A DNA stretch of 49,778 bases from Chloroflexia bacterium. GTDB lineage: Bacteria > Chloroflexota > Chloroflexia > QHBQ01 > JADMIH01. The notes beneath the pieces were generated by a model. It had not been told where the DNA came from. It did no database searches and worked only from the letters and a program-made list of their open reading frames with translations. Position numbers and translations under genes: made by a program. The stretch lies in the NCBI GenBank assembly GCA_038324555.1, contig JBBQIC010000001.1:1-49778 (forward strand), in the 5' to 3' direction. Shown piece after piece: positions 20,274 through 49,778 of the stretch. Within the stretch, counting starts at the first letter, position 1. Each line of letters opens with the position of its first letter.

Positions 20274-20287
20274 GTGTGGTAGTTGAA

Positions 20288-30962: not shown

Positions 30963-32572
30963 CGATTTGCCACCGGAGTAGGCGTGGCATAGGTATCTAC
31001 GAAGCCCGACCAGGTAAAGTCATCATATAGTACGCGGATATAGCGGTCACTGGTCCACAGGGTATTGCCGTGTGCGAAAGGCTGCCACGCCCCTGTTATG
31101 GCGGCCTCCTGGTCTGTTGCCCAACCCAGGCGCTGGCGCAACCCCGGATCAGCGTGCCATACCTTGCCGAAGCCACGCACCGGCTCATAATAGCCTTGGG
31201 GCGGAGTAGAAGGTACAGGAGTAGGATCGCTTTCCCGCCAGGTATCGGTATACGATACCCATGTGCCGCCGTCCGACGCGCCGTTCAGGAAGACCAGGAT
31301 GACGTGCGTGTCTTCTCGCCAGAACATGTAGCCACCCTGGAAGTGCTGCTGTGTCGCCGCCAGTATTGCCGACTCGCTTTCCTCCGGGCAACCTAACCCG
31401 TTCCGCACCACAGGATTGCCGTTCCACAACTTTCCAAAACCGCTCACAGGTGTAGATGAGCACGCAGGAATAGGAGTAGAAGCGCCAGGCGTAGCCGTTG
31501 TGCCAGGCCCAGGCGTCTGCGTACCTTTGTGGCCGGGTGTGGTGGTTGGGTCCTGTCCCGCCTCGTTGGTAGGCGTAGCGGTCGGCGTGGCAGAAGGCTC
31601 AACGGTCCTCGCAGGCGTAGAGGTGCTTGTGCTCGTAGCGCCCGGTATTGACGTACTCGTAACATCAATTATCGCCCTGGTCGGCAACGTAGAAACCGGC
31701 TCAGGCGTATTCGCCGCGTGAATGACCTGCGCGATAGCGGTTGGCTCGGCGGTGTGCGTCGGCTTGACGGTGCTCGTGCTTGTGGGGGTGCTTGTGGGCG
31801 TGGCAGTTAGCGCAGGCAGCGAAAAGGTAAGTGTGATTGGTTCGGGAGCCAGGATGCCACTGACGATGTTAAGGTGTATGTTCGGAGCATCAATATCAAT
31901 TTCGTAGTTAGCCCCTGCAACCCACTTGCCACCTGGTGGGGAAATTGCCAATATTCTAGTAGACAGCGAATACGACTTTACAATGTTGGTGATGGCAGCA
32001 GAAGCGCCCGCTTCTACACGTCGAACGGACGTGTTCTGGCGAGCTTCGTCAGCCTTTACGTCCTTGCTGAACTGAACGCGCACAGGCTCAACATAAGTTG
32101 GCGAGGCATCAAGACGAGCCGCAGCCTGGGTTGATGAGATGTTGCGGGTTATCAATATAGCTGCCACGAACAGAACTAACGCTGCCACTGTCAAGCCCAT
32201 CACAGGTATAGCCCCTCCCCAACCTTTACCAAACTTAGTAGCAAGCGGGTTCGCGGGACGCGACGCAGGTGACTTTGGACTTTGGACTTTGGACCTTGGA
32301 GCTGCAAGAACTGCACGACCCGGCGTCGCTGTGCTCGGACGCGCTTCGATAGCCCGCCAAACGTCGCGCCGCAAACCAGAAGGTGGAATGGGCTCGGCCA
32401 GAGCGCGCATTCCGCTTCCTATAGCCCTGTACTCAGCCAGAGCATGGCTGCAAGCTTCGCACCCCACCAGATGGCTCTCTACCCTGGAGTATTCCTCCGG
32501 CGTAGCTTCACCATCATAGTAAGCTGAGATTAGCGGCCTGATGTCGTTGCAGTTCATTACAAAGTTCCCCAC
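30947..32572 (-). CDS. Anti-sigma factor (zf-HC2) with one TM helix and a large extracytoplasmic domain
   Basis: N-terminal CNDIRPLISAYYDGE...HLVGCEACSHAL, a TM segment, Thr/Pro linkers, and C-terminal G.G..W......LG repeats. Downstream of the ECF sigma gene. Confidence 0.8.
   Translation of the reverse strand: MGNFVMNCNDIRPLISAYYDGEATPEEYSRVESHLVGCEACSHALAEYRAIGSGMRALAEPIPPSGLRRDVWRAIEARPSTATPGRAVLAAPRSKVQSPKSPASRPANPLATKFGKGWGGAIPVMGLTVAALVLFVAAILITRNISSTQAAARLDASPTYVEPVRVQFSKDVKADEARQNTSVRRVEAGASAAITNIVKSYSLSTRILAISPPGGKWVAGANYEIDIDAPNIHLNIVSGILAPEPITLTFSLPALTATPTSTPTSTSTVKPTHTAEPTAIAQVIHAANTPEPVSTLPTRAIIDVTSTSIPGATSTSTSTPARTVEPSATPTATPTNEAGQDPTTTPGHKGTQTPGPGTTATPGASTPIPACSSTPVSGFGKLWNGNPVVRNGLGCPEESESAILAATQQHFQGGYMFWREDTHVILVFLNGASDGGTWVSYTDTWRESDPTPVPSTPPQGYYEPVRGFGKVWHADPGLRQRLGWATDQEAAITGAWQPFAHGNTLWTSDRYIRVLYDDFTWSGFVDTYATPTPVANRPVGE
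32271..32300. repeat. actttgg heptamer tandem, in frame in the anti-sigma gene
   Basis: (actttgg) x4. Encodes KVQSPKSP on the minus strand. Confidence 0.8.
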
Positions 32573-33535: not shown

Positions 33536-33598
33536 GGAGTAGGGTGAGGGAGTAGGGATAAAGACTACTCCCTCACCCTATTCCCTCACCCTACTCCC
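33536..33598. repeat. agggtgagggaat-family hairpin
   Basis: ggagtagggtgagggagtaggg-ataaagacta-ctccctcaccctattccctcaccctactccc. The loop and arm are shared with the 9644 copy. A half-copy lies at 33332-33356. Confidence 0.9.
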
Positions 33599-36105: not shown

Positions 36106-36296
36106 GAAGATTTATCCTTCTCAAAAGCAGAGTCTCTAAAACACAAGCAAAATGGCGACGCTATAAAACGCCTCTTTGATTATACACACTCTGAAGCCTC
36201 TAGAGAAATAGGAAAAGCAAAGTACTTTTCGGCTAACACTCTGGGATAGGGTGGTTCCGTAGGGGCACACGGCCGTGTGCCCTGTGATGTAGGGGA

Positions 36297-36537
36297 GTAG
36301 GGGCGCACGGCCGTCATTGACCCCAACTAATACACTGGTTCGACTCCGCCCGGCGCTCTCCGCGAGCGAATTAGTTGAGGCATGGTCATAATTCGTAGGC
36401 ATGATTGCGGTTGTAGGGGCGCACGGCCGTGCGCCCCTACGGTTGGGCCGCAGATGTATGCTGGTACGTAGCGCGTGTCTGACCATTTATGACCATGCCT
36501 CAATTAGTTGGAGTCAATGACGTCCGTGCACCCCTAC
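36297..36537. mobile_element. MITE-like composite element with 35-bp terminal inverted repeats (32/35 match)
   Basis: Left end gtaggggcgcacggccgtcattgaccccaactaat (36297-36331). The reverse complement of the right end (36503-36537) is gtaggggtgcacggacgtcattgactccaactaat. Inside are a 17-bp inverted repeat ttgaggcatggtcataa (36375-36391 / 36487-36503) and a gtaggggcgcacggccgtgcgcccctac palindrome (about 36413-36440). Confidence 0.65.
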
Positions 36538-38128: not shown

Positions 38129-38193
38129 GACGATGGACGATGGACGATGGACGATGGACGATTGAACGAGCATCGTCTATCGTCCATCGTCTC
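38129..38193. repeat. gatggac-family hairpin upstream of comEC
   Basis: (gacgatg) x~5, loop tgaacgagc, then atcgtctatcgtccatcgtctc. Confidence 0.9.
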
Positions 38194-38265: not shown

Positions 38266-40026
38266 TCACTTCTCGGCTCTGACCTCAAACAACGAAAACG
38301 ACGTGCCTGGACAGCCTACCTGCGTCAACTTGTATCCATTCTTCAGATGATGATACGTTTCACCTATCCTGGTGTTACCCCATTGCTCCTCAAACCCGGA
38401 CAGAGGCAAAGCGAGATAGCCCCGCACGTCTGACTCTCCGCCCTCTAGAGCCTGGTCAACCGAACCGGGCGTTTCAAGGAAAAGCTCGCGCGGGTTCAAT
38501 CTGGTATACTGACGTAGCGTAAAGGTTATCCCAAAGCTGAATAACGGCTTTTGGGGCGAACTACTACCAACGGTTTCTTGTACACAGCGCGCCGCCCGCA
38601 AGTAGTCCTCCTTCTCAGTATACAAGCCTCGAAAATCAGCCCAGGCGGTGACTGCGGAGATTAGCAGGCCAACTCCCGCAGCGCATAGCACCAGGAGTAT
38701 GGCAATCGTGTGCAGCCGGTAGACAATTTTGGATTTTGGATTTTGGATTTTGGAGTTGGTAAGTTTAGTCCAAAATCCAAAATCCAAAATCCAAAACCCC
38801 CCTAAGCCAGCTACGATTGCCATCGGCGGCAGGTAGCTCAATACAAAGCGGTCGGCCTGATATATGTTGCCGCTGTAGAACCCCGTGAAGAGCAACCACC
38901 AACCTACAAGCAAGCCTGCGGCTGCGAGCGCCTTCCACCGCACAAGCGCCAACAAGCCCAACATCAGCATAGGTAGCAGCCCCAACCCAAGCGCGCCGAG
39001 CGACAGGAGGGGGCGCAGCAGGAAGAAATACCCCATCGGCCACTTATAGCTCAAATGACCATCAGGGCTATCAAACGACGACTGCCAGGCGTGCGCAGGG
39101 TTCCAGGTACTTATCACCGGGCTTGGAAGCGACCCCATAGGGTGCGCCAGGTTGTGCAGAAGCTGCAAACCCACAAGAAAGACTAGAGGAGCAGCTAGGG
39201 GCCAGAAGCGTCGCACCAATAGGGACCAGGGGTCAGGGATCAGGGATCGGTTAGTAGCCTTCGCCTCCCGATCCCTGACCCCTGACCCCTGATCCCTACT
39301 TCCTATGATAAATAGGAAGATAGGGAGCAACAGCAGAGGGTAAATATAACGGGTTATGGAGGCGATGCCGAGGCACAAACCCCCGGCGAGGCCCGTCCAT
39401 AGGGTGCGGGAATAGGGTGAGGGAGTGGTTACTATTCCCTCGTCCCTCACCCTATTCCCTGCGCTAAGATAGCGCACTGCCAATAGAGCGCCCAAAACAG
39501 CCCAGAAAAGGCCCGCCATATCCGCCATAACGACCAGAGAAGCCCGCACCGCTAGAGGAGATACCGCCATTATTAGACCGGCGAGGACTGAGCCATATAG
39601 CACGTTGCGCGGTAGGGTGAGGGATGAGGGAGTAGTTCCTATTCCCTCATCCCTCACCCTACTCCCTATACATTGCCAAGTAGCTATCATCAGCATGGAC
39701 GTAAGCATAGGAGTAAGCGTGCCTGCCACGAAGTTGATAGCCTGCCCTGCGATAGTGTTGAGTCCGGTGATGGGGCTGACTAATGCCATCTGTATGTGAT
39801 AGCCTAGCGGCCATACTGATATTGGCGGCGTTCCCCAGACCGTAAGCCACTGCCAGAGCTTGCCGGGGTCTGTCCAGACCTTGACTAAATCCTGCGTTGC
39901 CGTAAGATAGAAAAAGGCGTCCTGGCCGTAAAGACCGTCAAACGGAAAGAGCAGGAGCAACAGGCCGCGAAATAGCAGCGAGACCAGCCCTACCAGAAGA
40001 ATAGCCATCCAATCCTTGCTAAACAC
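38266..40026 (-). CDS. GT-C fold membrane glycosyltransferase (GT39/ArnT/PMT_2-like)
   Basis: More than 10 predicted TM helices. N-terminal loop FPFDGLYGQDAFFYL. Carries four in-frame hairpin-element insertions. Confidence 0.6.
   Translation of the reverse strand: MFSKDWMAILLVGLVSLLFRGLLLLLFPFDGLYGQDAFFYLTATQDLVKVWTDPGKLWQWLTVWGTPPISVWPLGYHIQMALVSPITGLNTIAGQAINFVAGTLTPMLTSMLMIATWQCIGSRVRDEGIGTTPSSLTLPRNVLYGSVLAGLIMAVSPLAVRASLVVMADMAGLFWAVLGALLAVRYLSAGNRVRDEGIVTTPSPYSRTLWTGLAGGLCLGIASITRYIYPLLLLPIFLFIIGSRDQGSGVRDREAKATNRSLIPDPWSLLVRRFWPLAAPLVFLVGLQLLHNLAHPMGSLPSPVISTWNPAHAWQSSFDSPDGHLSYKWPMGYFFLLRPLLSLGALGLGLLPMLMLGLLALVRWKALAAAGLLVGWWLLFTGFYSGNIYQADRFVLSYLPPMAIVAGLGGFWILDFGFWTKLTNSKIQNPKSKIVYRLHTIAILLVLCAAGVGLLISAVTAWADFRGLYTEKEDYLRAARCVQETVGSSSPQKPLFSFGITFTLRQYTRLNPRELFLETPGSVDQALEGGESDVRGYLALPLSGFEEQWGNTRIGETYHHLKNGYKLTQVGCPGTSFSLFEVRAEK
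38727..38797. repeat. ttggatt-family hairpin, in frame in the GT-C transferase
   Basis: ttttggattttggattttggattttgga, a 15-nt loop, then ccaaaatccaaaatccaaaatccaaaac. Encodes FWILDFGFW...KIQNPKSKI. Confidence 0.9.
39220..39298. repeat. cagggat-family hairpin, in frame in the GT-C transferase
   Basis: tagggaccaggggtcagggatcagggatcgg, a 17-nt loop, then ccgatccctgacccctgacccctgatcccta. Confidence 0.9.
39399..39460. repeat. agggtgagggaat-family hairpin, in frame in the GT-C transferase
   Basis: atagggtgcgggaatagggtgagggag-tggttacta-ttccctcgtccctcaccctattccct. Confidence 0.85.
39611..39668. repeat. agggtgagggaat-family hairpin, in frame in the GT-C transferase
   Basis: ggtagggtgagggatgagggagtag-ttcct-attccctcatccctcaccctactcccta. 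Confidence 0.9.
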
Positions 40027-40047
40027 GAGTTGAGTTTACATTCTTAA

Positions 40048-41190
40048 ATGCAAATAGGCAACGACTCGGCAAAGCCGGAAGAGCGAGATAAGGGCGCGAT
40101 TAATCACGCTCCCACCGGCTGGCGCGTCCGGCCTTACAGGGAGGAGGATATGCACGGCCTGCTCGCACTTTACAGCGATGTCTTCGGACGCGAGCGGACG
40201 GAAGAGGAATTTCGATGGAAGCTGCTGGGACCAGGCACAGCTATAGATACTGTGTGGGTAGCTGAGAGCGCAGACGGAGAGATAATCGGCCAGCACGCGG
40301 GCATACCCATGCGTCTCAAGCTAGGGGATAGTATTGTTACAGCGATGCACGCAGTTGAAGCCATGTCCCACCGCGATTTCCGGCGGGAAGGGATGCTCAC
40401 CAGGCTGGGTGGGGGGCTTTACGGGCGGTGGCAAGAGCAGGGCGTTCCACTCATCATAGGCTTGCCACACGAGGGTTGGGGGTCGCGCGCCTATGCCCTC
40501 GGCTATCGCCAGGCGTTTCCCATGAGGTGGCTGTCCCGACCCTTGCGGCCTCTCTCTATCGTGCTGTCCAAAGTCCAAAGTCGAATGTCCAAAGTCCAAA
40601 GTTCAGGGTCCAAGGTTCAGGGTCCAAGGTTCAGGGTCCAAAGTCCAAAGTCCGAAGCTGAGGGTTGGACTTTGGACTTGCAGGACATACAGGTGCTCCG
40701 CCACGAGTTCGCCGGACCCGACTTCGACGAATTGTGGAGCGACATAGGAGGCGCTTACAGCAACGCAGTAGTCAGAGACGCCCGATGGGTGCAATGGCGC
40801 TACCTGGACGCGCCCACTGCGCCTTACTCGCTCTTGCTCGCCAGCCGGAAAGGCAGGCCTACGGGTTACATAGCCTATCGCACCGTAACGTCTGGTGCAA
40901 GAAGGATCGGGCGCATCGCGGACATCTTCGCCCGGCCAAATGACACTCAAACAACCCGTGCCCTGGTGAGAGAGGCTATATCCGACCTTCGACGCAGTGG
41001 CGCAGACTCTGTGGTTGTCCTGGTTGCGGTTGGCTCACTTCTATACTCAACTATGAGGGCGCAAGGCTTCTTGTTCAATCGCGGCGAGTATAAAGTGGCC
41101 TTCATACGGCTCTCGGAGGCTATTGACGCCCAGACTATAAATGATCCCGGCAAGTGGCTCCTCACAGGGGGAGACTTTGATGTCGTTTAG
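40048..41190 (+). CDS. GNAT-family N-acetyltransferase (two-domain)
   Basis: VRPYREEDMHGLLALYSDVF, VAESADGEIIGQHAGIPM, FRREGMLTRLG (acetyl-CoA loop). Has a 115-nt in-frame repeat array. Confidence 0.75.
   Translation: MQIGNDSAKPEERDKGAINHAPTGWRVRPYREEDMHGLLALYSDVFGRERTEEEFRWKLLGPGTAIDTVWVAESADGEIIGQHAGIPMRLKLGDSIVTAMHAVEAMSHRDFRREGMLTRLGGGLYGRWQEQGVPLIIGLPHEGWGSRAYALGYRQAFPMRWLSRPLRPLSIVLSKVQSRMSKVQSSGSKVQGPRFRVQSPKSEAEGWTLDLQDIQVLRHEFAGPDFDELWSDIGGAYSNAVVRDARWVQWRYLDAPTAPYSLLLASRKGRPTGYIAYRTVTSGARRIGRIADIFARPNDTQTTRALVREAISDLRRSGADSVVVLVAVGSLLYSTMRAQGFLFNRGEYKVAFIRLSEAIDAQTINDPGKWLLTGGDFDVV
40566..40680. repeat. gtccaaa/ggtccaaggttcag array with short reverse arm, in frame in the GNAT
   Basis: About 13 heptamer units run 40566-40657. 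The reverse arm is ttggactttggacttg. Encodes SKVQSRMSKVQSSGSKVQGPRFRVQSPKSEAEGWTLDL. Confidence 0.9.
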
Positions 41191-42118
41191 TCGTGCCCTC
41201 TTGCGGACTCTGGCCCGCTGCATCATCTACCCTCTGGTTGAGATGATGACGATGTTGTTGCTTCTCGCGCGTGCCAAAATTGGCGGAAGCCAGCGTCTGG
41301 CCCGCCCTTTCAGATCAGCAGGTGGACAATGCGTGCTCATTATAGCAGCACACCCCGACGACGAAACAATTGGGTGTTTCGGCGTCATCCTCTTACACAG
41401 GCAAGCCGGGGATACCGTCAAGGTCCTTGTGGCGACCGACGGAAGTGGTTCGCGCGCTGGCGGACTATCTCCCAGCGAAATGGCTGCCGGGCGGCGCGAT
41501 GAAGTCACGGAATTGCAGAAACTGCTTGGTGATATCGAAATAGAGCAACTCGGCCTGGTAGAGAACCGGTGGGACCAGGGCGCACTTGAGGCAGAACTCA
41601 GAGTAACCCTAGATAAACTAAAGCCTCATATCATATATGCCCCGTCGTGCGTTGACTTCCACCCTGAGCATATAAAGGTAGGCAAGGCTCTTGCTGAAGC
41701 CTTAGTCCATCTGGGGAGTGAGCAACTACCCATAATAAGAGCATATGAGATGCAGGCGCCATTGGGCATAGAGTTGGTCAACTTCTACTCTCCCCTGGGC
41801 CAATATTACCCTGAAAAACGGCGCGCTATAGCCGCATACAAATCGCAAAAGGGCGCGCTCGACCTGTGGGAGCGACAGGCAAAGTACATGGGCGCATTAT
41901 TCGGGGCGGCGGGCGGCGCAGAAGCCTTCTGGGAAATGACCACGCCTGGTTATACCAGCATCATGCGCCACGCGGATTGGGATTGGCAAACAACGCCCTT
42001 CAAGGGCCTCTCCGGTCGCCCCTTCGGTGATTTCCGGGCGCATGTGACAGGAAGAAGGGTTCGCCTTTCACTTCTTCGTATTGCCAAGCCTACGGACTCT
42101 TCTCAACCGCAAGACTGA
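41180..42118 (+). CDS. PIG-L/LmbE-family N-deacetylase
   Basis: ATG 41180 overlaps the GNAT stop by 11 nt. Contains LIIAAHPDDETIG and a later HPEH motif. Confidence 0.85.
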   Translation: MSFSRALLRTLARCIIYPLVEMMTMLLLLARAKIGGSQRLARPFRSAGGQCVLIIAAHPDDETIGCFGVILLHRQAGDTVKVLVATDGSGSRAGGLSPSEMAAGRRDEVTELQKLLGDIEIEQLGLVENRWDQGALEAELRVTLDKLKPHIIYAPSCVDFHPEHIKVGKALAEALVHLGSEQLPIIRAYEMQAPLGIELVNFYSPLGQYYPEKRRAIAAYKSQKGALDLWERQAKYMGALFGAAGGAEAFWEMTTPGYTSIMRHADWDWQTTPFKGLSGRPFGDFRAHVTGRRVRLSLLRIAKPTDSSQPQD

Positions 42119-42174
42119 ACTTTTGCGCCAGGCAAAAAGAATGCGAAGAGTAACCAGAGCGCGTATACTGTATA

Positions 42175-42951
42175 ATGTGTTCGCGCATGATTAACAGCCC
42201 TATGAAGTCTAAGGTCCAGGGTCGAGGGTTAGAACGTTGGACTTTCGACTTTAGACTTCGGACACGCTTCAGGCACGCCATCAAGTGGGGCTACTCGCTG
42301 CGATGGAGGGCGCTGCCGCCGGATTACAACAGGACTTACTGGCTCAAATCCAATGGCTTCGAGATAACAGTTCTGCCGTCGGTCTTCCACCCGAAGTGGC
42401 ACTTTACGAGCGAATTCTTCGCGGAAACGTGCGTATCGCTCATCCCAAGGCACGGTGATTGCAGCGTGTTGGAGATCGGCACGGGCACCGGATTGATAGC
42501 CCTTTCGGCAGCACGGCGCGCAAAGAGGGTCGTGGCAGTTGACATCAACCCAGCAGCCGTGAAGTGCGCCAGGATAAACGCGACCAACAATGGCATGGCA
42601 AGTAAGATTGAAGTATACGAGGGAGATATGTTCGGTCCTGTAACGGATCGCAAATTCGACCTCATCCTGTGCAACCCGCCCTACTTCCGGGGCACACCAC
42701 GCTCCGAGGCAGACCTGGCGTACCTGGCCGGGCCAAACCTGGAGTGGATAAGCCGCATGGCAAGCGAAGCGCACAACTATCTTTCCGATGGCGGTTCTCT
42801 CGCCTGCGTGTTCGGCGATGCAGCCAATGTTCCCGCCCTCGTCGCGCTCATAGAGAAGAAGGGCTGGACGGGCCGCATCATCGCAAAGCGGGCTACCCCG
42901 TTGGAGGAGTTGACAGTTTGGCAATTCAAGGAGGGTGAGGGAATAGGGTGA
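42175..42951 (+). CDS. Class I SAM methyltransferase with NPPY motif (HemK/Mtq2-like small-domain type)
   Basis: VLEIGTGTGLIAL, VVAVDIN, DLILCNPPY. The start is uncertain (in-frame ATGs at 42175, 42187 and 42202). The N-terminal ~30 aa overlap a hairpin element. Confidence 0.8.
   Translation: MCSRMINSPMKSKVQGRGLERWTFDFRLRTRFRHAIKWGYSLRWRALPPDYNRTYWLKSNGFEITVLPSVFHPKWHFTSEFFAETCVSLIPRHGDCSVLEIGTGTGLIALSAARRAKRVVAVDINPAAVKCARINATNNGMASKIEVYEGDMFGPVTDRKFDLILCNPPYFRGTPRSEADLAYLAGPNLEWISRMASEAHNYLSDGGSLACVFGDAANVPALVALIEKKGWTGRIIAKRATPLEELTVWQFKEGEGIG
42204..42259. repeat. Degenerate gtccaaa-family hairpin at the methyltransferase 5' end
   Basis: gaagtctaaggtccagggtcgag...ttggactttcgactttagacttc. 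The arms are imperfect. Confidence 0.6.
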
Positions 42952-43062
42952 GGGAGTAGGGGCACACGGCCGTGCGCCCCTACGGGTGTCCCGTGACGTT
43001 GGGTAGGGGCGCACGGCCGTGTGCCCCTACTCCCTCACCCTATTCCCTCACCCTACTCCCTA
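42931..43062. repeat. Composite palindrome-of-palindromes (agggtgagggaat arms, each carrying a gtaggggc.cacggccgtg.gcccctac palindrome)
   Basis: gagggtgagggaatagggtgagggagtaggggcacacggccgtgcgcccctac, about 20 nt, then gtaggggcgcacggccgtgtgcccctactccctcaccctattccctcaccctactcccta. Confidence 0.9.
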
Positions 43063-43072
43063 TAAGAAAAGC

Positions 43073-44536
43073 ATGATACTACTATATAACCCAAGAGCTA
43101 CCGAGATCAAATACCGTCTACCGCTGTCGGTGTTGTCATTGGCCGCTGTCTTCGACGGTAAGTACCCATGGCAGATTGTTGACGGCAACGTGGACCCCAA
43201 CGCAAATCAAACTCTGCTCGATGTACTGGAGCGAGACCGCAGCATAAAATATCTGCTGGTGACGGTCATGCCCGGTCCACAGTTGATGCACGCCGTACCC
43301 GATACGCGCGCTGTGAAAGCGCGTTTCCCGCACGTTACGGTCATCTGGGGCGGCTATTTCCCGTCGTCTCACCCCAATGTCGTGCTGAACGACCCCGCGA
43401 TAGACTACGTTGTGCGCTCGCAGGGGGAAAACACGATCCTGGGACTGCTGGACGTGCTCGAAAATGGCGGCTCGCTGGCGGGGATAGACGGCATCTCCTA
43501 TAAAGAGGACGGCGCGATAAAGTTCAACAAAGCGCGCAAGCTGGCCGACCCCAACGTATTCCCGGTGTTGCCTTACGAGAAGATAGACGTCAGGAAATAC
43601 TTAAAGAACACGATCCTGGGCAGCAAGACCACCTCATACCATTCGAGCATCGGCTGTCCGTTCACATGCTCATTCTGCTCGGTCACGAAGAATTACGCGG
43701 GGCGATGGCTGGCAGAGACGCCTGAGCGCACCATCGAGAGCGTGCGCCTGCTGCACGATAGATATGGCGTGAACGGCATCGAGTTCCACGACAGCAACTT
43801 CTTCACCGCTGAGAAGCGCGTCGCGGCCTTTGCCGAGGGTGTGAACGGCCTGGGCATCGGTTGGTGGGGCGAGGGCACGATTGATACCATCATGCGCTAC
43901 GACGACAGCACCTGGGACCTCATGCGCGACTCCGGCTGCAAGATGATCTTCATGGGCGCGGAGAACGCCTCGGCTACCACGCTCAAGCACATGAACAAAG
44001 GCCCTCTTACGCCCGAAACGACGCTGGCGATGACCGAGAAGTCGGCGCGCTACGGCATCATCCCGGAGTTCTCGTTCGTACTGGGCAACCCCCCCGATCC
44101 CGAAGCCGACATAGACGAAAATATCGAGTTCATCTACAAAATCAAGAGCATCAACCCGGCCTCGGAGATAATCCTGTATCTTTACACGCCAACGCCCGGC
44201 GGCCACATGTACGAGGAGGCAGAGCGCGCGGGTTTTAAGTACCCTGACACGCTCGACGGCTGGATCAGCCCCGAATGGGCCAGTTTCTCCCGCCGCCGCA
44301 ACCCGCACACGCCCTGGGTAAAGCAATCGCACCTAGACAAGCTGAACAACTTCGAGACGGTCCTCAACGCCCGCTACCCGACCGTTTCCGACCTGAAGAT
44401 TCGCCCCTGGCACCGCAAGGCGCTCAAATCGCTGGGAAGCTGGCGCTACAGGCTGCGCGTATACGACAACCCCGTGGAGTTGAGGGCGATGTTCAAGTAC
44501 ATTTCGTACACGCAGCCTGAGCAGGCGGGGTTATAA
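43073..44536 (+). CDS. B12-binding-domain radical SAM enzyme (class B)
   Basis: Rossmann-like N-domain, then the CxxxCxxC cluster SSIGCPFTCSFCSV. ATG 43073 (MILLYNPRA) follows the composite palindrome. Confidence 0.85.
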   Translation: MILLYNPRATEIKYRLPLSVLSLAAVFDGKYPWQIVDGNVDPNANQTLLDVLERDRSIKYLLVTVMPGPQLMHAVPDTRAVKARFPHVTVIWGGYFPSSHPNVVLNDPAIDYVVRSQGENTILGLLDVLENGGSLAGIDGISYKEDGAIKFNKARKLADPNVFPVLPYEKIDVRKYLKNTILGSKTTSYHSSIGCPFTCSFCSVTKNYAGRWLAETPERTIESVRLLHDRYGVNGIEFHDSNFFTAEKRVAAFAEGVNGLGIGWWGEGTIDTIMRYDDSTWDLMRDSGCKMIFMGAENASATTLKHMNKGPLTPETTLAMTEKSARYGIIPEFSFVLGNPPDPEADIDENIEFIYKIKSINPASEIILYLYTPTPGGHMYEEAERAGFKYPDTLDGWISPEWASFSRRRNPHTPWVKQSHLDKLNNFETVLNARYPTVSDLKIRPWHRKALKSLGSWRYRLRVYDNPVELRAMFKYISYTQPEQAGL

Positions 44537-44580
44537 AATCACAAACAAAAATCACTCCGTGATTTTTGTTTGTGATTTTA
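44534..44580 (+). terminator. Perfect 22-bp AT-rich stem hairpin after the radical SAM gene
   Basis: taaaatcacaaacaaaaatcac-tcc-gtgatttttgtttgtgatttta. The TAA stop is the first 3 nt of the stem. Confidence 0.5.
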
Positions 44581-44586
44581 GGTGAA

Positions 44587-44650
44587 ATGAACCTAGCCCT
44601 CGTCATCCCAGGCTTCCAGGCCAACGAACGCGACTGGTGCATCCCCGCCT
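44587..44650 (+). pseudogene. Duplicated 5' fragment (first ~21 codons) of the GT4 glycosyltransferase gene
   Basis: 60 of 64 nt are identical to 45445-45508 (MNLALVIPGFQANERDWCIPA vs MKLALVIPGFQANERDWCIPA). Confidence 0.8.
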
Positions 44651-44657
44651 ATGAATC

Positions 44658-44666
44658 TGCTATAAT
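44658..44666 (+). promoter_or_regulatory. Extended -10 element (TGcTATAAT) for the second TA cassette
   Basis: tgctataat lies immediately after the duplicated GT4 fragment, 57 nt upstream of the antitoxin ATG. Confidence 0.4.
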
Positions 44667-44722
44667 GTGCCTACGTCAGTGTATACAAACGTGTAAGCAC
44701 GCAAAGAGGAGCTACAGCACAC

Positions 44723-44977
44723 ATGAGAACGGTAGGCGTCAGGGAACTCAAACAACGCACAAGCGAGATACTGCGCGAGGTCCAGGCGGGCCAAGTCGTT
44801 GATGTGACCAATCGGGGAACGACAGTAGCACGCCTGGTACCTGTTCGGCAATCGGTGTTGAGTGACGAAGAGATAGAGGTAATACTGGACGATCTTGATA
44901 GCCTGGCCGCCGAGATAAGCGCCAAGTGGCCTCAAGGTTTGAGCGTCGAAGACGTCATGGACGACATTAGGCGATAG
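44723..44977 (+). CDS. Type II antitoxin, Phd/YefM family
   Basis: MRTVGVRELKQRTSEILREVQAGQVVDVTNRGTTVARLVPV is the canonical Phd/YefM N-terminus. Precedes a PIN gene by 7 nt. Confidence 0.85.
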   Translation: MRTVGVRELKQRTSEILREVQAGQVVDVTNRGTTVARLVPVRQSVLSDEEIEVILDDLDSLAAEISAKWPQGLSVEDVMDDIRR

Positions 44978-44984
44978 CCTTAGT

Positions 44985-45440
44985 ATGGTGCAACAAGTAC
45001 AGATCGCTACGACAGGCACGGGGCAGCACGTAGTTCTCGACGCAAGCGTTTGGGTTAGCCGTACCATCACCAAAGATAGCAACCACCTCCCTGCTCGCGC
45101 ATGGATAACCAGGCACTTCCAAACACGCGGCACTATTGTAGCGCCAACACTATTCGAGATAGAGATAGCCGCAGCCATTTCCAGGGTAACAAAAGACCAA
45201 CAACTCGCACACAAGGAGGTCGCTCAATTGCACCGCCTGAACGCTCGGGGCATCCTACGCTTAATAACCGCAGACACGAAAGTCATACAAGGCGCGACGA
45301 CTATTGCTATCGGTTACGGGTTGAGGGCCGGAGATGCGATTTATGCGGCACTGGCCCAACAGCTAGGAATCGCCCTCGTCACGTTCGACACAGAATTGCT
45401 GAACCTGCCTGCAACAGTCATCACGACAATCCGACCTTGA
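44985..45440 (+). CDS. vapC: PIN-domain toxin, VapC family
   Basis: VVLDASVWV (first Asp), EIEIAAAI, GDAIYAALAQQLGIALVTFD. Confidence 0.8.
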   Translation: MVQQVQIATTGTGQHVVLDASVWVSRTITKDSNHLPARAWITRHFQTRGTIVAPTLFEIEIAAAISRVTKDQQLAHKEVAQLHRLNARGILRLITADTKVIQGATTIAIGYGLRAGDAIYAALAQQLGIALVTFDTELLNLPATVITTIRP

Positions 45441-45444
45441 CGTT

Positions 45445-46617
45445 ATGAAGCTGGCCCTCGTCATCCCAGGCTTTCAGGCCAACGAACGCGACTGGTGCAT
45501 ACCCGCCTTCACCAACCTCGCCCGCGAACTTGCCAAGAGCGTTGAGTTGCACATATTCGCCCTCCGGTATCCTGGCGAGAAGCGCGATTATAAGATAGGG
45601 CAAGTGTACGTCCATGCTATCGGTGCGGGCGCGTTTGCGGGGCGGCGTGTCGTCGGCGCAAGCCTGTTGAAGTTGTGGGGGGATGCACTTTTAGCGATTG
45701 AGGGAGAACACGCCAGAGCCAACTTTGAGGCGATAATGGGCGTGTGGGCTACGGAGTCTGGGTGGCTTGCGACCGTCGCGGCAAAGCGGCTTGGATTGCC
45801 GTCCCTGGTCCACCTTGCGGGAGGAGAGCTTACCTGGTTGCCCGACATAAAGTACGGCAGCAGGGGACGCGGCCTTGCGCGGTCGCTCGTTCGCCATTGC
45901 CTTAGAAATGCCGACATACTGACTGTGCCTTCAGGCCCCATGAAGCGAGCAATCCTGAAAAATCCAGGTGTGCAACTGAGCAAGATCAGATCGTGGGCGC
46001 TGGGTGTGGATACCATAATGTTCAGGCCATGCGAGCGACTGCGTGTGCAAGCGCGGACGGACCCATTCACGTTCGTCACGGTCGGCTCACTCATCCCCAT
46101 AAAAGGGCATCGCTGGTTGATTGAGGGCGTGAAGGGGTTAGCCCAGACCGTAACGGACAAACCCTTTCGCCTGAACATTATTGGCGACGGCCCTCTCCGA
46201 CATGAATTGCAAGCTTTGGTAAGTAGTTTGCAGCTACAGGGATATGTCAACTTCGGGGGCGAGATCAGGCACGATGATCTGCCCCATCATATGCTTATGG
46301 GGGATTGTTTCTTGCTAGGGTCAAGGCACGAAGCGCAGTGCATGGCCGCGCTCGAAGCGATGGCTTGCGGCCTGCCCTGGATCGCCCCACAGGTAGGCGC
46401 ATTGGCCGATTGCGCTATGAATGGACAGCCTTCGGGTATTCCAATAAAGGAGAGACACACCCAGGCGCTCGTTGAAGCTATGGCGACCATGCTTCATGCG
46501 ACACCAGAGCAGAGAAAGACCTGGGGTGTCGAAGCTAGAGGCCAGGCGCTCGATAATTACGAGGTGACGAAGCAGACAGCACAGCTATTGGCCTTTTTGA
46601 AGGAGTTGACGGCATAA
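45445..46617 (+). CDS. GT4-family (GT-B) glycosyltransferase
   Basis: E-x7-E motif region GSRHEAQCMAALEAMACGLPWIAPQVG. N-terminal MKLALVIPGF is typical of GT4. Confidence 0.85.
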   Translation: MKLALVIPGFQANERDWCIPAFTNLARELAKSVELHIFALRYPGEKRDYKIGQVYVHAIGAGAFAGRRVVGASLLKLWGDALLAIEGEHARANFEAIMGVWATESGWLATVAAKRLGLPSLVHLAGGELTWLPDIKYGSRGRGLARSLVRHCLRNADILTVPSGPMKRAILKNPGVQLSKIRSWALGVDTIMFRPCERLRVQARTDPFTFVTVGSLIPIKGHRWLIEGVKGLAQTVTDKPFRLNIIGDGPLRHELQALVSSLQLQGYVNFGGEIRHDDLPHHMLMGDCFLLGSRHEAQCMAALEAMACGLPWIAPQVGALADCAMNGQPSGIPIKERHTQALVEAMATMLHATPEQRKTWGVEARGQALDNYEVTKQTAQLLAFLKELTA

Positions 46618-46683
46618 AGGATAGGCTGCTAGAATGTTATGGGTTAAGTACACGTAACCCAGGCGCGTATATGTCCGTAGGGG

Positions 46684-46838
46684 CCATTGACTCCGCCCGG
46701 CGGCTAAAGCCACAGGCTACGAATACAAAGCCTCCTTTCGGAGGCTCCTTATGCAGAGAAAAGGTTCACCCCTGCCAGCCCGCGTAGGCGGGCTTTGTAT
46801 TCGTAGCCCGTGGCTTTAGCCGCCGGGCGGAGTCAATG
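46684..46838. mobile_element. MITE-like element with ~48-bp terminal inverted repeats
   Basis: ccattgactccgcccggcggctaaagccacaggctacgaatacaaagcc pairs with ggctttgtattcgtagcccgtggctttagccgccgggcggagtcaatg with 1-2 mismatches. Small inner hairpins are gcctcc-tttc-ggaggc and agcccgc-gtag-gcgggct. Confidence 0.7.
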
Positions 46839-46865
46839 ACCCCGTGCCTGACCATAAGATACACT

Positions 46866-48455
46866 ATGACCAAAGTCTTACTCGGCCAATCTTACTACCT
46901 GCGCTTCGACCCCAAATTGTGGGAGGCCATGCAGCCCTACCCGCCGCTTGGGACGCTTTACGCCGCCTCATATATACGTGAACGCGGGTACGATGTTCGC
47001 CTGTTCGACTCTATGCTGGCGGCGTCCGAAGACGAATGGGTTAGCGCGCTCGACTTGCACAAACCGGACTTCGCGGTCATCTACGAAGACGGTTTCAATT
47101 ACCTCTCCAAGATGTGCCTCACCAGAATGCGTGAAGCAGCGTTCAAGATGGCCGAAGCCGCCAAAGAGCGCGATTGCACGGTGCTTGTGTCGGGCTCCGA
47201 CGCCACCGACCACAAGGAGAGGTACTTCGCGCACGGCGTTGACGCAATTATCGTGGGAGAAGGGGAAGTGACGCTCGCACAGACGCTGGACACGCTCACA
47301 GGTAAGGAGGGCAGGCACGGGGGCAACGAGGGCAGGCACGGGGATCTGCCCCCACTGGACCGCAAGAGCATACCCGGCCTGGCCTGGCCCGACGCGCCCA
47401 ATCCTACGCCGCGCGGCTTTATGAAGGGGCTTGACACACTGCCCTTCCCAGCGTGGGACCTGGTAGACATTGAACGCTATAAGAAAATATGGCTGGAGCG
47501 CCACGGTTACTACTCAATGAATATGGTCACCACGCGCGGCTGCCCGTACCACTGCAACTGGTGCGCCAAGCCCATCTACGGCCAGCGTTACAACGTGCGC
47601 TCACCCGAAAACGCGGCTGCCGAGATGCGGTGGTTGAAAGAACACTACGCGCCCGACCACATCTGGTTCGCCGATGACATACTCGGCCTCAAACCCGGCT
47701 GGCTGGAACGCCTCGCAGCAGAAGTAGAACGGCTCGACGCGGTGACACCCTTCAAGTGCCTGCTTAGAGTTGACCTCATCAACCCCGGCGTGCCTGAAGC
47801 CCTCAAACGGGCGGGCTGCGACATAGTGTGGGTGGGCGCGGAATCCGGCTCCCAGAAGATACTGGACGCGATGGACAAAGGCACTCGCGTCGAACAGATA
47901 TACGATGCCGCTCGTAAGCTGCACGCGGCGGGCGTCAAGATAGCTTTCTTCCTGCAATTCGGCTATCCGGGCGAGGAGCACGCCGACATAGAGGCCACGC
48001 TCCGCATGGTGCGCGAGTGCGAACCGGACGACATAGGAATGTCCGTGTCCTACCCACTGCCCGGCACGAAGTTTTACGAGAGCGTCAAAGTGCAACTGGG
48101 CGAGAAGCAGAACTGGCTCGACAGCGCCGACCTCGAGATGATGTACCAGGGCGAATATTCAACAGCGTTCTACCGCAAACTGCATGTAGTTCTACACAAA
48201 GAGTACCGCGCCCGCAAGATCTGGCGAGAGTTACGCATCGGATTGCGGAATAGGAGGCTGCAAAAATCCGCAATCCGCAATCCGCAATCCGCAATCTGGA
48301 GGACCGCCGCTTCCATGCTCTACAACATGACAACACTGCCTATAGAGCGCCGGAAGTTGAACAAGTTGGCCCGCGAATCTAAGCACGGCATCGGCCCGCT
48401 CCCGCGCATTATGACGCCGGAAGCCGCCGCTACACCAACGTCACAGGTGGAGTGA
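46866..48455 (+). CDS. B12-binding-domain radical SAM enzyme (class B)
   Basis: ATG 46866 (MTKVLLGQSYYLRFDPK), TTRGCPYHCNWCAKP, VGAESGSQKILD. Two in-frame element insertions. Confidence 0.85.
   Translation: MTKVLLGQSYYLRFDPKLWEAMQPYPPLGTLYAASYIRERGYDVRLFDSMLAASEDEWVSALDLHKPDFAVIYEDGFNYLSKMCLTRMREAAFKMAEAAKERDCTVLVSGSDATDHKERYFAHGVDAIIVGEGEVTLAQTLDTLTGKEGRHGGNEGRHGDLPPLDRKSIPGLAWPDAPNPTPRGFMKGLDTLPFPAWDLVDIERYKKIWLERHGYYSMNMVTTRGCPYHCNWCAKPIYGQRYNVRSPENAAAEMRWLKEHYAPDHIWFADDILGLKPGWLERLAAEVERLDAVTPFKCLLRVDLINPGVPEALKRAGCDIVWVGAESGSQKILDAMDKGTRVEQIYDAARKLHAAGVKIAFFLQFGYPGEEHADIEATLRMVRECEPDDIGMSVSYPLPGTKFYESVKVQLGEKQNWLDSADLEMMYQGEYSTAFYRKLHVVLHKEYRARKIWRELRIGLRNRRLQKSAIRNPQSAIWRTAASMLYNMTTLPIERRKLNKLARESKHGIGPLPRIMTPEAAATPTSQVE
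47307..47353. repeat. Direct duplication gagggcaggcacgggg x2, in frame in radical SAM 2
   Basis: Units at 47307-47323 and 47328-47343 share agggcaggcacggggg with the 14485 inverted-repeat arm. Encodes EGRHGGNEGRHG. Confidence 0.8.
48239..48296. repeat. gcaatcc-family hairpin, in frame in radical SAM 2
   Basis: cggattgcggaat...(atccgca) x4.5. Encodes IGLRNRRLQKSAIRNPQSAI. Confidence 0.85.
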
Positions 48456-48457
48456 TG

Positions 48458-48507
48458 GACGTGAAACGTGAAACGTGATTATCGTGTTCACGTTTCACGT
48501 TTCACGC
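48458..48507. repeat. gtgaaac-family hairpin between radical SAM 2 and 3
   Basis: gacgtgaaacgtgaaacgtga-ttatcgtgt-tcacgtttcacgtttcacgc. The loop is homologous to the reverse complement of the 2917-2928 loop. Confidence 0.9.
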
Positions 48508-48519
48508 ATCAGAATTACT

Positions 48520-49778
48520 ATGGACATCCTACTGACGCACGGCTACTTTATAGCCGAAGACCCACACGAACAGAAGATAATGAAGCCGTACCCCACACTT
48601 GGGATACTGTATATCTCCTCGCACCTTAAAGCTAAAGGCTTCAGCGTAGAACTGTACGACACCACTTTCTCCACGAAAGCCGCTTTCCGGGCGTATTTAG
48701 AAGCGAAGCGTCCGCCCATCGTGGGCATCTACACTAATCTGATGACCAAGCTCAACGTTATCCCCATGATCGGGTGGTGCAAATCAGTCGGGGCCAAGGT
48801 CGTGCTGGGCGGACCCGAACCTCCGCACTACGCGGACGAGTTCCTAGACGCAGGGGCCGACGTGGTGGTCATCAGCGAGGGCGAAGAGACGCTGGAAGAG
48901 CTGATCCCTGCCCTACGGGTAGGGGCACACGGCCGTGTGCCCCTACAAGGCGTCAGAGGCATAGTGTTCCGCGACGAAGACGGTAAAACGGTGCGCACGC
49001 CTCCGCGCCCGCTCATAAAGAACCTGGACGCACAGCCCTTCCCCGACCGCGAGGCGATTGATATGGACCGCTACGTAGATACCTGGCGTACAAATCATGG
49101 ACGTGGCTCGGTGTCCCTCATAACGGCGCGCGGCTGTCCTTACACCTGTAAATGGTGCAGCCACTCGGTCTTCGGCAATACCCACAGACGGCGCTCTCCT
49201 GAGAATGTGCTCGCCGAGCTAGAGGAGATTATCGAACGCTACAGCCCCGACCAGCTATGGTACGCCGACGACGTGCTAACTATCCATCGAAGTTGGACCC
49301 TCAACTTCGCCGCGCTGCTAAAAGAGCGGGGCGTCAAGATACCGTTCGAGTGCATTTCGAGGGCCGACCGCCTGGACCCGCAAGTAATAGACGCTCTTGC
49401 GGAGATAGGCTGCGACAAGCTGTGGATAGGCGCGGAGAGCGGCAGCCAGAGGATACTTGACGCGATGAGCAGGCGCACGCAGGCAGAGGACGTGCAAGCC
49501 AAGACGCATATGCTCAGGCGCGCGGGCATCCAAACGGGCATGTTCATCATGCTCGGCTACGAAGGCGAGGAGATACCGGACATCGAGGCCACGGTTGACC
49601 ATCTCAAAAAGGCCGACCCCGACATCTTCCTAACCACAGTCGCCTACCCCATCAAAGGCACCCCCTACTACAACGAAGTCGAGAGCCGCATCATAGAGCA
49701 GACATCCTGGCAGGGGCGCACCGACCGCGACCTCACCGTAGCCGGACGCCACTCCAAACGCTTCTACTCCTTCGCCAC
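48520..49778 (+). CDS. B12-binding-domain radical SAM enzyme (class B), 3' partial
   Basis: Not in the ORF track because it runs off the window. I translated frame 1 from ATG 48520 to the end without finding a stop. Contains MDILLTHGYFIAEDPHEQK..., ITARGCPYTCKWCSH and IGAESGSQRILD. The last complete codon ends at 49776. Confidence 0.8.
   Translation, partial: MDILLTHGYFIAEDPHEQKIMKPYPTLGILYISSHLKAKGFSVELYDTTFSTKAAFRAYLEAKRPPIVGIYTNLMTKLNVIPMIGWCKSVGAKVVLGGPEPPHYADEFLDAGADVVVISEGEETLEELIPALRVGAHGRVPLQGVRGIVFRDEDGKTVRTPPRPLIKNLDAQPFPDREAIDMDRYVDTWRTNHGRGSVSLITARGCPYTCKWCSHSVFGNTHRRRSPENVLAELEEIIERYSPDQLWYADDVLTIHRSWTLNFAALLKERGVKIPFECISRADRLDPQVIDALAEIGCDKLWIGAESGSQRILDAMSRRTQAEDVQAKTHMLRRAGIQTGMFIMLGYEGEEIPDIEATVDHLKKADPDIFLTTVAYPIKGTPYYNEVESRIIEQTSWQGRTDRDLTVAGRHSKRFYSFA
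48919..48946. repeat. Perfect 28-nt palindrome gtaggggcacacgg|ccgtgtgcccctac, in frame in radical SAM 3
   Basis: Read directly from the sequence. Encodes VGAHGRVPL within the B12-binding domain region. Confidence 0.9.

Follow-up and report, generated by a model that had tools for sequence, protein, structure and literature searches.

Several bacteria transfer amino sugars to extracytoplasmic acceptors from lipid-linked intermediates, namely by the Arn pathway (ArnC/ArnD/ArnE-F/ArnT), which places L-Ara4N on lipid A, by LgmA/LgmC/LgmB of Bordetella for glucosamine (GlcN), and by FlmF2/NaxD/FlmK of Francisella for galactosamine (GalN). In these systems an N-acylated amino sugar on a membrane carrier is de-N-acylated, flipped and transferred outside by an ArnT/PMT-type glycosyltransferase (GT) of the GT-C class. 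A second precedent includes a radical S-adenosylmethionine (SAM) enzyme: bacteriohopanetetrol first receives N-acetylglucosamine (GlcNAc) through HpnI, the sugar is then deacetylated by HpnK, and ring contraction by the radical SAM enzyme HpnJ yields a cyclitol ether, an analogous step being performed in archaea by calditol synthase (Cds) (PMC13459092, a 2026 review of lipid-modifying radical SAM enzymes). Here we describe a gene cluster at positions 38266-49778 of contig JBBQIC010000001.1 from a Chloroflexia bacterium (assembly GCA_038324555.1) that encodes a GT-C-like membrane protein, a GNAT acyltransferase, a PIG-L-family deacetylase, a SAM methyltransferase, a GT4 glycosyltransferase and three class B radical SAM enzymes. 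The window analysed is the complete contig of 49,778 bases, at the end of which the cluster is truncated. Comparison with relatives at the sequence level indicates that the cluster is a real conserved unit across the Chloroflexota, found also in the Gemmatimonadota. We lean towards the reading that the locus builds and tailors a carrier-linked amino-sugar saccharide, which is flipped and handed by the GT-C enzyme to an extracytoplasmic acceptor; its product is most likely an amino-sugar glycoconjugate that is attached to the membrane, modified by the three cobalamin-type radical SAM enzymes and brought to the cell surface. A preliminary description of this DNA had proposed a radical-SAM-tailored glycoconjugate and drawn a parallel to mycothiol; a conserved pathway of glycoconjugate type with radical SAM tailoring is supported below in its general form, but the mycothiol-like framing is not. 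It had also recognized no described pathway here, and indeed no curated cut-off for a defined pathway was reached and full-text literature searches returned no description of the cluster.

The GT-C-like protein (586 amino acids, aa) is encoded on the minus strand at 38266-40026 by an open reading frame with at least eight hydrophobic segments in a hydropathy scan. Divergent from it, on the plus strand, lie genes for a tandem-GNAT acyltransferase (40048-41190, 380 aa; Pfam Acetyltransf_9 1.9e-14, weak Acetyltransf_17), a PIG-L/LmbE-family zinc deacetylase (41180-42118, 312 aa; Pfam PIG-L 9.4e-21), a HemK/MTS-type SAM methyltransferase, here called MTS (42175-42951; Pfam MTS 9.8e-20), the first class B radical SAM enzyme, rSAM1 (43073-44536, 487 aa; Radical_SAM 1.7e-11, B12-binding 4.9e-07), a retaining GT4 (45445-46617, 390 aa; Glycos_transf_1 6.2e-27, Glyco_trans_4_4), rSAM2 (46866-48455; Radical_SAM 5.5e-21, B12-binding 3.1e-10) and rSAM3 (48520-49778, incomplete; Radical_SAM 6.5e-20, B12-binding 2.6e-16). 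Every gene previously named was recovered at its coordinates in the open reading frame list and profile scans, as was the 11-nt overlap of GNAT and PIG-L, the PIG-L start at 41180 being fixed by a catalogued 312-aa product (P0121). The earlier starts of rSAM1 (43073) and rSAM2 (46866) are preferred over the longest-frame starts at 43019 and 46836 because the latter fall within palindromic repeats. rSAM3 runs off the window as noted before, lacking about 60 C-terminal residues relative to homologues of about 480 aa.

Synteny in relatives had been set in advance as one test of this cluster, and the arrangement cannot be attributed to chance because it recurs. A second Chloroflexia locus (L002) has a gene order identical to that of the window, and the full set is colinear in a Gemmatimonadota locus (L090). 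There, each of the window's biosynthetic genes has an orthologue in a single operon, which spans L090 2230-15664 (GCA_040882575.1, JBBEBA010000101.1), runs in one direction and adjoins Poly_export/GNVR genes; its Chloroflexia counterpart is L002 597-11455. The L090 operon consists of an unannotated family termed fam3, rSAM2 (54%), rSAM3 (59%), two methyltransferases, MTS (39%), rSAM1 (44%), GNAT (34%), PIG-L (40%), a PMT-like GT-C, a GT2 and GT4 (32%; identities in brackets). The architecture of the window, with a B12 radical SAM gene within 10 kb of GNAT and PIG-L, is shared by L002 and by L085, the latter reading GT-C, GNAT, a PIG-L::MTS fusion, GT4 and rSAM2. Two further architectures also place GNAT and PIG-L in the company of B12 radical SAM genes: in Ardenticatenaceae (L065), MTS, GNAT and PIG-L lie at most 10 kb from rSAM3, and in L088 a GT4-GNAT-PIG-L-GT4 run is placed amid four class B radical SAM genes, MTS and further methyltransferases. 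The L088 locus (1457-20741) also carries two sulfotransferases, a di-haem oxidoreductase (DHOR), two SPASM radical SAM genes and a GT9 heptosyltransferase-like neighbour, and this larger variant suggests a sulfated product in a diderm host. Three other GNAT-PIG-L architectures have no B12 radical SAM gene within 10 kb. These are GNAT-PIG-L-GT2-flippase with TMEM260/PMT_2 and DUF2298 membrane proteins nearby (L086, L087 and L091), GNAT-PIG-L followed by a 752-aa protein and PMT_2 (L089), and, on a JGI contig of 219,584 bases, amidohydrolase-GNAT-PIG-L beside PMT, amidohydrolase, GT2 and GT4 genes.

The radical SAM genes are widespread. Scoring of 8000 candidate rSAM3 homologues, all at E <= 1e-20, gave identities of 66-96% for the best 120, and a scan of one-genome-per-species contigs placed rSAM3 relatives in at least 576 GTDB species genomes, the best 80 of which are 61-82% identical. 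Most belong to the Chloroflexia, Anaerolineae, Caldilineales, Ardenticatenaceae and Promineifilaceae, with some bins labelled Polyangiaceae and Elusimicrobia. We mapped the window proteins on 84 loci by tblastn and clustered all of their open reading frames. An rSAM2 orthologue lies at most 3.6 kb upstream of rSAM3 in 46 of the 64 loci with enough sequence. Among the 34 well-flanked loci, defined by at least 8 kb on either side of rSAM3, the neighbours are rSAM2 (26 loci), a class I methyltransferase family termed fam1 (23), rSAM1 (17), fam3 (16), MTS (12), a Wzx-type flippase (Polysacc_synt; 11), any GT-C (10), GT4 (10), a fourth class B paralogue termed rSAM4 (10), an Amidohydro_1 enzyme (7) and GNAT with PIG-L (1). 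Over all loci, Amidohydro_1 proteins, as alternative deacetylase-type enzymes, occur in nine besides the window. The typical order in Anaerolineae is fam3, rSAM2, [rSAM4], rSAM3, fam1, MTS, rSAM1, often with flippase, GT-C and GT4 next, and in Chloroflexia two divergent GT-C-like genes followed by rSAM1, GT4, rSAM2, [rSAM4] and rSAM3. Proteins of fam3 (~330 aa), absent from the window, are encoded immediately upstream of rSAM2 in 30 loci (for example L038 6443-7432) and give weak NTP_transf_2 and MNT hints of a nucleotidyltransferase fold. Directly upstream of rSAM2 in three loci fam3 is fused to GT4 (L004 4866-7004, L018 258-2399, L036 5231-7483).

The radical-SAM-free architectures, together with co-occurrence in a single well-flanked locus, imply two modules that can work apart. 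Module A would comprise GNAT, PIG-L and the PMT-like GT-C, with GT2/GT4 and a flippase in relatives, and module B the radical SAM and methyltransferase genes, that is the rSAM2/rSAM3 pair plus MTS paired with rSAM1. Each module occurs alone, and they are joined in at least four different arrangements in at least two phyla. GNAT and PIG-L are an optional addition to the radical SAM module.

Domain fusions tie the modules to each other and to the membrane. An exhaustive search with MTS gave 53 relatives at E <= 1e-30, many of them long, of which ten were scanned with Pfam. PIG-L::MTS fusions are found in P0130 and P0131, and in L085 PIG-L and MTS form one protein of 544 aa. P0293 (664 aa) consists of a full Polysacc_synt/MurJ-like (Wzx-type) flippase fused to MTS. 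The ten also include double and triple fusions of class I methyltransferases with MTS, among them P0305 (814 aa) with two further methyltransferase domains, and fusions of MTS to unassigned N-terminal polytopic membrane parts, such as P0407 (655 aa). P0290 (522 aa) starts with the GT-C family motif FPFDGLTGQD and continues with flippase-like sequence and then MTS; it may be a chimera of assembly or gene calling, and either way the GT-C, flippase and MTS genes neighbour each other. Comparison ruled out fam3 as the N-terminal part of P0290, P0315 and P0407. The fusions of MTS to deacetylase and flippase would place its chemistry on a membrane-bound, flipped saccharide, and an MTS so tethered most simply acts on the deacetylated carrier-linked sugar just before flipping. 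The window MTS, with its NPPY motif, scores 98.2 bits against a cut-off of 87 for TIGR00537 (HemK2/MTQ2), the sole NCBIfam cut-off passed by any protein of the cluster. Both its setting in the operon and its fusion, in relatives, to PIG-L and to a saccharide flippase speak for a substrate other than protein, and the HemK2/MTQ2 protein-methyltransferase name is doubtful for this protein and probably wrong. Of the earlier alternatives of glycolipid or small glycoconjugate, the membrane-associated one is favoured by the flippase::MTS and PIG-L::MTS proteins and by the PIG-L anchor, and the soluble small conjugate is disfavoured by the linkage to GT-C and flippase genes.

The deacetylase assignment is clear, with 75.1 bits to Pfam PF02585 against a gathering score of 28.2, AHPDDE and HPEH motifs in the translation and TT1542 (1uan) as best match in the PDB. 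A single N-terminal hydrophobic segment in a hydropathy scan is its predicted membrane anchor. A PIG-L gene follows GNAT in all nine homologue loci whose context was read, and the GNAT family is small (44 proteins). The GNAT protein has no sequence match in the PDB; an Acetyltransf_9 domain is followed by a second GNAT-fold domain, as in Eis-type and tandem-GNAT enzymes, and its AlphaFold2 model (predicted local confidence, pLDDT, 89) contains two GNAT domains. Top Foldseek folds are N-myristoyltransferases (E 1e-16, TM 0.58) and the Eis-like 2hv2 and 2ozg, with no MshD entry among the top 50. Residues ~185-210 are a repeat-derived insert modelled as a disordered linker. From its fold, the protein is predicted to be an acyl-CoA-dependent N-acyltransferase of the two-domain kind.

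The GT-C protein, previously labelled GT39/ArnT-like, has no match of its own in Pfam, NCBIfam or a PDB sequence search, and the profile of its family finds nothing meaningful in the PDB. Eight homologues from related clusters can be aligned with it from end to end (27-49% identity), and the N-terminal motif FDGLYGQD is invariant across the alignment. Of the resulting family of nine, the window protein included, six match Pfam PMT (best 3.4e-14) and five PMT_2. We therefore accept the 38266-40026 product as a putative PMT/ArnT-like GT-C on the strength of its family; the label stands for the full-length homologues and is not recovered by the window protein alone. C-terminal repeats of the PMT_2 GT-C of Chloroflexia relatives (L007 220-2892) resemble the LGFP-type repeats found in two proteins elsewhere in the window, an anti-sigma factor (30947-32572) and an 835-aa glycoside-hydrolase-like protein (33598-36105).

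For GT4, two domains score 94.7 and 45.4 bits, above their gathering scores, and NCBIfam cut-offs are not reached for EpsE (105 against 400 bits), BshA (68.6 against 273.7) or MshA (52.3 against 462.5). In the Chloroflexia loci, the GT4 orthologue is consistently flanked by rSAM1 and rSAM2.

All three radical SAM proteins combine Pfam B12-binding and Radical_SAM domains, so that class B cobalamin use is predicted, and all contain a CxxxCxxC motif (CPFTCSFC in rSAM1; CPYHCNWC and CPYTCKWC in the others). They had been called three paralogues, which fits rSAM2 and rSAM3 (33% identity over 437 aligned positions, full length) better than rSAM1, only 21-27% identical to either. The rSAM1 orthologue in L002 is 83% identical, the rSAM1 gene is directly downstream of MTS in most relatives that have both, and the rSAM4 of relatives is ~30% identical to rSAM1. 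None of the three falls in a defined functional subgroup, as all NCBIfam scores are well under the curated cut-offs. The best matches of rSAM1 are BchE (121.8 bits) and HpnJ (107.6 bits), both far under cut-off, and rSAM2 gives 105.8 bits with the lipid-associated TIGR04072 and 108.7 with HpnJ. For HpnJ (TIGR03471) the three proteins reach 107.6, 108.7 and 114.6 bits against 577.6, and the top scores for other families are likewise below threshold (PhpK 138.4 against 600, BchE 134.4 against 481, TIGR04072 105.8 against 360, AprD4 76 against 500), as are those for HpnR, the methyl-coenzyme M reductase (MCR) Gln methylase and other defined class B subfamilies. Scores are thus 3- to 6-fold under the cut-offs and match only the generic radical SAM core. 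The AlphaFold2 model of an 89% identical rSAM3 orthologue (P0002; pLDDT 89) matches MgmA, AprD4, TsrM, CysS, OxsB and TokK at TM 0.64-0.70. MgmA is the top structural match, and AprD4, solved in complex with its substrate paromamine, ranks among the two nearest structures, at ~20% identity. AprD4 is a diol dehydratase and not a methylase; the fold search supports the assignment to class B and goes no further. A GT4 and an LmbE-type deacetylase produce paromamine, and AprD4 offers a precedent for class B chemistry on a GlcN glycoside.

Gene content, synteny in two phyla, domain fusions and fold classes are compatible with the following route, in which the sugar, carrier, acceptor, each reaction and the order of steps are proposals. 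GT4 would add an N-acetylhexosamine, probably GlcNAc, from a nucleotide sugar to a membrane-bound acceptor at the cytoplasmic face, and the membrane-anchored PIG-L would remove the N-acetyl group. The NPPY (HemK-like) methyltransferase may then N-methylate the freed amine, and the tandem GNAT may N-acylate an amine or, in an Arn-like manner, make an N-acyl donor before transfer. rSAM1, as partner of MTS, and the rSAM2/rSAM3 pair would modify unactivated carbons of the sugar or of the N-substituent, possibly by C-methylation, deoxygenation or ring contraction. A Wzx-type flippase, encoded in clusters of relatives and not on this contig, would flip the product, and the divergently transcribed GT-C would transfer it outside. 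The linkage of GNAT and PIG-L to GT-C, GT2/GT4 and flippase genes points to a lipid-linked, exported saccharide of Arn/Lgm type, not to a soluble small conjugate. A more specific version, which we put forward tentatively and regard as possible, is that rSAM2/rSAM3, with rSAM1 and in many genomes the fourth paralogue, perform a widespread radical chemistry directly on the carrier-linked amino sugar, which is then N-methylated, N-acylated, flipped and installed by the PMT-like GT-C; candidates for that chemistry are C-methylation, deoxygenation and an HpnJ/Cds-like ring contraction to a cyclitol.

Several observations weigh against a carrier-linked, exported saccharide. Profile scans of the contig found no flippase, priming phosphoglycosyltransferase or polyprenyl-phosphate GT2. 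The GT2s of relatives were considered as ArnC/GtrB-like candidates and gave no support for this, NCBIfam showing generic EpsD/TuaG/WcaA-like matches, and no GT4 enzyme is known to make polyprenyl-monophosphate sugars, the usual GT-C donors. The window GT-C has four in-frame insertions that are absent from all relatives, each coinciding with a palindromic or heptamer DNA repeat, and might be impaired. Conservation of rSAM2/rSAM3 is unusually high (61-82% identity across classes and phyla), a level commoner in core metabolism than among enzymes that tailor glycans. Three further points would be expected if modules A and B were independent neighbours in a general envelope island, one for envelope amino-sugar transfer and the other for an unrelated radical SAM product: GNAT and PIG-L are missing from 33 of the 34 well-flanked rSAM3 loci, GNAT-PIG-L-GT2-flippase and GNAT-PIG-L-PMT clusters exist without radical SAM genes, and many rSAM3 loci have no glycosyltransferase within 8-10 kb. 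We nevertheless consider independence, though the main rival reading, unlikely, as the modules adjoin in four gene orders in at least two phyla, PIG-L of module A is fused to MTS of module B, which is also fused to a flippase, and GT4 is intercalated between rSAM1 and rSAM2 in Chloroflexia, with GT4::fam3 directly upstream of rSAM2 elsewhere.

The same high conservation, with wide vertical distribution, would fit a core membrane function in which the radical SAM enzymes modify a lipid hydrocarbon (mid-chain methylation, cyclisation or tail-to-tail coupling) while GT4, PIG-L and GNAT build an amino-sugar head group. Such chemistry is common for class B enzymes (PMC13459092), with Gmm, GrsA/B, HpnP/R and ladderane-associated enzymes as models, and lipid-associated families are among the best NCBIfam matches of rSAM2. 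These matches are, however, the generic sub-threshold ones described above, the partner methyltransferase is fused to a saccharide flippase and a sugar deacetylase, and the conserved neighbourhood contains no lipid-synthesis gene, fabH/fabD (22-24 kb) being housekeeping genes 14 kb away. We rate modification of a lipid tail as quite improbable.

A soluble aminoglycoside- or aminocyclitol-like secondary metabolite made by gentamicin-type logic, with Eis-like acetylation for self-resistance, would account for a gene set that mirrors GenM/GenD/GenK/GenD1/GenN, for AprD4 as a top structural and sequence match and for the Eis-family domain and Eis-like structural neighbours of GNAT. It is very unlikely given that neither the window nor related clusters encode a cyclitol synthase, aminotransferase or dehydrogenase, that GT-C, flippase and polysaccharide-export genes are present instead, that PIG-L is predicted to be membrane-anchored, and that a spread over at least 576 species at 61-82% identity does not look like that of a secondary metabolite. 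About as unlikely is modification of a protein or of a ribosomally synthesized and post-translationally modified peptide (RiPP), in which a HemK-like glutamine N-methyltransferase would act with class B C-methylases as in MCR maturation or proteusins. Passage of the HemK2/MTQ2 cut-off by MTS would agree with this, as would the match of rSAM3 to MgmA, the MCR glutamine C-methylase, and NCBIfam matches of the cluster to ApyD and RiPP methylase models. No conserved small precursor was found among clustered open reading frames of at least 70 aa in the 84 loci (shorter frames were not scanned), however, glycosyltransferases lie inside the operon, and the MTS fusions are to sugar- and saccharide-handling proteins. 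Lastly, a mycothiol- or bacillithiol-like thiol, or another small cytoplasmic GlcN conjugate, shares with the cluster the MshA/MshB/MshD family composition and weak NCBIfam matches to BshB1, BshA and MshA, and is barely conceivable with a GT-C/flippase linkage, a PIG-L anchor, GNAT folds nearest to N-myristoyltransferases and Eis-like proteins, and scores far under equivalog cut-offs. The exported, carrier-linked amino-sugar saccharide remains the reading we favour.

The cluster of the window has itself been disturbed between rSAM1 and GT4, where genes for a Phd/YefM antitoxin (44723-44977, plus strand; PhdYeFM_antitox 4.5e-08, 33.2 bits) and a PIN/VapC toxin (44985-45440, plus strand; Pfam PIN 3.4e-15, 57.1 bits) form a type II toxin-antitoxin (TA) pair, the antitoxin gene just upstream of the toxin gene with a 7-nt spacer. 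A cassette insertion had been proposed here, and the flanks agree: the two genes stand between two copies of the first 64 nt of GT4, one at 44587-44650 (plus strand), just after the rSAM1 stop and behind a ribosome-binding-like AGGTGA, 94% identical to the other at 45445-45508. Relatives all lack the cassette here, and in other Chloroflexia loci GT4 comes directly after rSAM1. An identical 2.9-kb contig from another read set shares the insertion. Judged from these sequences, the cassette is a true insertion, of which the 64-nt repeat is a clear footprint. In L002, the nearest relative with a full-length cluster, the slot of the cassette is taken by a HIT-family gene (6584-7096) without an NCBIfam match.

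Palindromic DNA occupies other spacers of the cluster. An element like a repetitive extragenic palindrome (REP), with 55-nt arms that are 98% complementary, lies between MTS and rSAM1 (42929-43057), and an inverted repeat with 67-nt arms (88% complementary) lies in the GT4-rSAM2 spacer (46680-46843), with a predicted promoter-like site at 46606-46635. Further REP-like copies are at 36252-36450 and 48912-48956. These GC-rich palindromes, with the core GTAGGGGCACACGGCCGTGCGCCCCTAC, and related palindromes occupy spacers and are also found at 39220-39298, 39415-39460 and 39622-39667; within coding regions they are in frame, four in the GT-C gene and one in rSAM3, and the open reading frames stay open. 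Perfect or near-perfect heptanucleotide tandem repeats with units GACGATG, ATTTTGG/TCCAAAA, GTCCAAA and AATCCGC are present at 38129-38162, 38726-38796, 40566-40665 and 48265-48296, including, inside genes, the GNAT inter-domain linker (of low pLDDT) and the rSAM2 C-terminus. No cobalamin riboswitch or other Rfam element was detected within the window.

The remainder of the contig is ordinary chromosome with pst/phoU/phoRB, fabH/fabD, biotin carboxylase, nusB, an extracytoplasmic function (ECF) sigma/anti-sigma pair, a glycoside hydrolase and comEC. Two tandem genes for PstS-like phosphate-binding proteins of 460 and 629 aa (14527-17771) precede those for the pst permease and ATPase, and two ABC ATPase genes are at 10459-12316. 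At the opposite end of the contig from the cluster, two adjacent BrxC/BrxD-like ATPase genes, a Uma2-family endonuclease gene and a DEAD/Cas3-like helicase gene (2960-9654) may represent a defence island.

Chloroflexota are abundant in soils, sediments and wastewater, and their envelope chemistry is poorly known. A gene set present in hundreds of species, with enzymes so well conserved across classes, implies an important undescribed component of the cell surface or membrane. With three or four unassigned class B subfamilies tied to glycosyltransferases, the reach of cobalamin-radical chemistry would grow beyond antibiotics and hopanoids to include the primary glycans of the envelope. If the proposal is true, the product would represent an envelope glycoconjugate of a kind new to bacteria, and its synthesis the first case in which radical SAM enzymes tailor a lipid-linked glycan precursor. 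Automatic names are probably wrong for several of these proteins, namely release-factor-type protein methylase for MTS and BchE or YgiQ for the radical SAM enzymes. For heterologous expression, the colinear operon of the Gemmatimonadota would be a compact choice.

The enzyme families of the cluster are known and their combination has not been described before; each related system covers a part of it. Mycothiol, bacillithiol and GPI-anchor synthesis begin, as we propose here, with GlcNAc transfer by a GT4 followed by deacetylation by a PIG-L-family enzyme, and mycothiol synthesis also ends with a tandem-GNAT step; the cluster differs in its additional radical SAM, methyltransferase and GT-C genes. 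Membership tests failed throughout and by wide margins, for mycothiol with MshB (18.7 against 224.35 bits) as with MshA, and for bacillithiol with BshB1 (47.3 against 182.5 bits) as with BshA. As already remarked in the preliminary description, there is no Cys ligase (MshC/BshC), none being found among the scanned open reading frames (those of at least 150 aa upstream and all cluster genes). The analogy drawn there is therefore not upheld: GNAT and PIG-L travel most tightly with PMT-like GT-C, GT2/GT4 and Wzx-type flippase genes, and the analogy captures family composition, not the membrane and export context. Aminoglycoside pathways, in which these enzyme families work on a GlcN glycoside and class B radical SAM chemistry on amino sugars is well documented, share GT4 (BtrM/NeoD/GenM1), LmbE-type deacetylases (BtrD/NeoL/GenD), class B enzymes (GenK/GenD1/AprD4), the methyltransferase GenN and an Eis acetyltransferase as resistance counterpart, and are set apart by their cyclitol core genes and sporadic distribution, the cluster having a membrane/export context and a wide vertical distribution. 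In Nod factor synthesis NodB, NodS and NodA de-N-acetylate GlcNAc, N-methylate the amine and N-acylate it, and PIG-L, MTS and GNAT could by analogy do the same, the nearest folds of GNAT including the fatty-acyl-transferring N-myristoyltransferases. The families differ, NodB being CE4, NodA not a GNAT and NodS another class I methyltransferase (matched at only 0.002); the cluster has no chitin-oligomer synthase, and Nod pathways have no radical SAM or GT-C enzyme.

The HpnI/HpnK/HpnJ pathway resembles the cluster more closely in its succession of glycosyltransferase, deacetylase and B12-domain radical SAM enzyme, with HpnJ among the best NCBIfam matches of all three radical SAM proteins. HpnI is a GT2 and HpnK is YdjC-like, compared with GT4 and PIG-L in the cluster. 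The radical SAM proteins are not HpnJ and number three instead of one, GT-C and flippase are additional, and no hopanoid genes are present on the contig. Relative to Arn and Lgm, the deacetylase is of PIG-L/LmbE and not ArnD/NaxD type, the window transferase is a GT4 and not an ArnC-like GT2, lipid A is lacking since most hosts of the cluster are Chloroflexota, and GNAT, the NPPY methyltransferase and the three or four class B radical SAM enzymes have no counterpart. Of the Arn/Lgm set, the deacetylase and a putative GT-C are encoded in the window, and the flippase and GT2 in relatives only. The PMT-like GT-C and the membrane-anchored deacetylase, with a flippase alongside in relatives, would be what the cluster has in common with these lipid-linked amino-sugar transfer systems.

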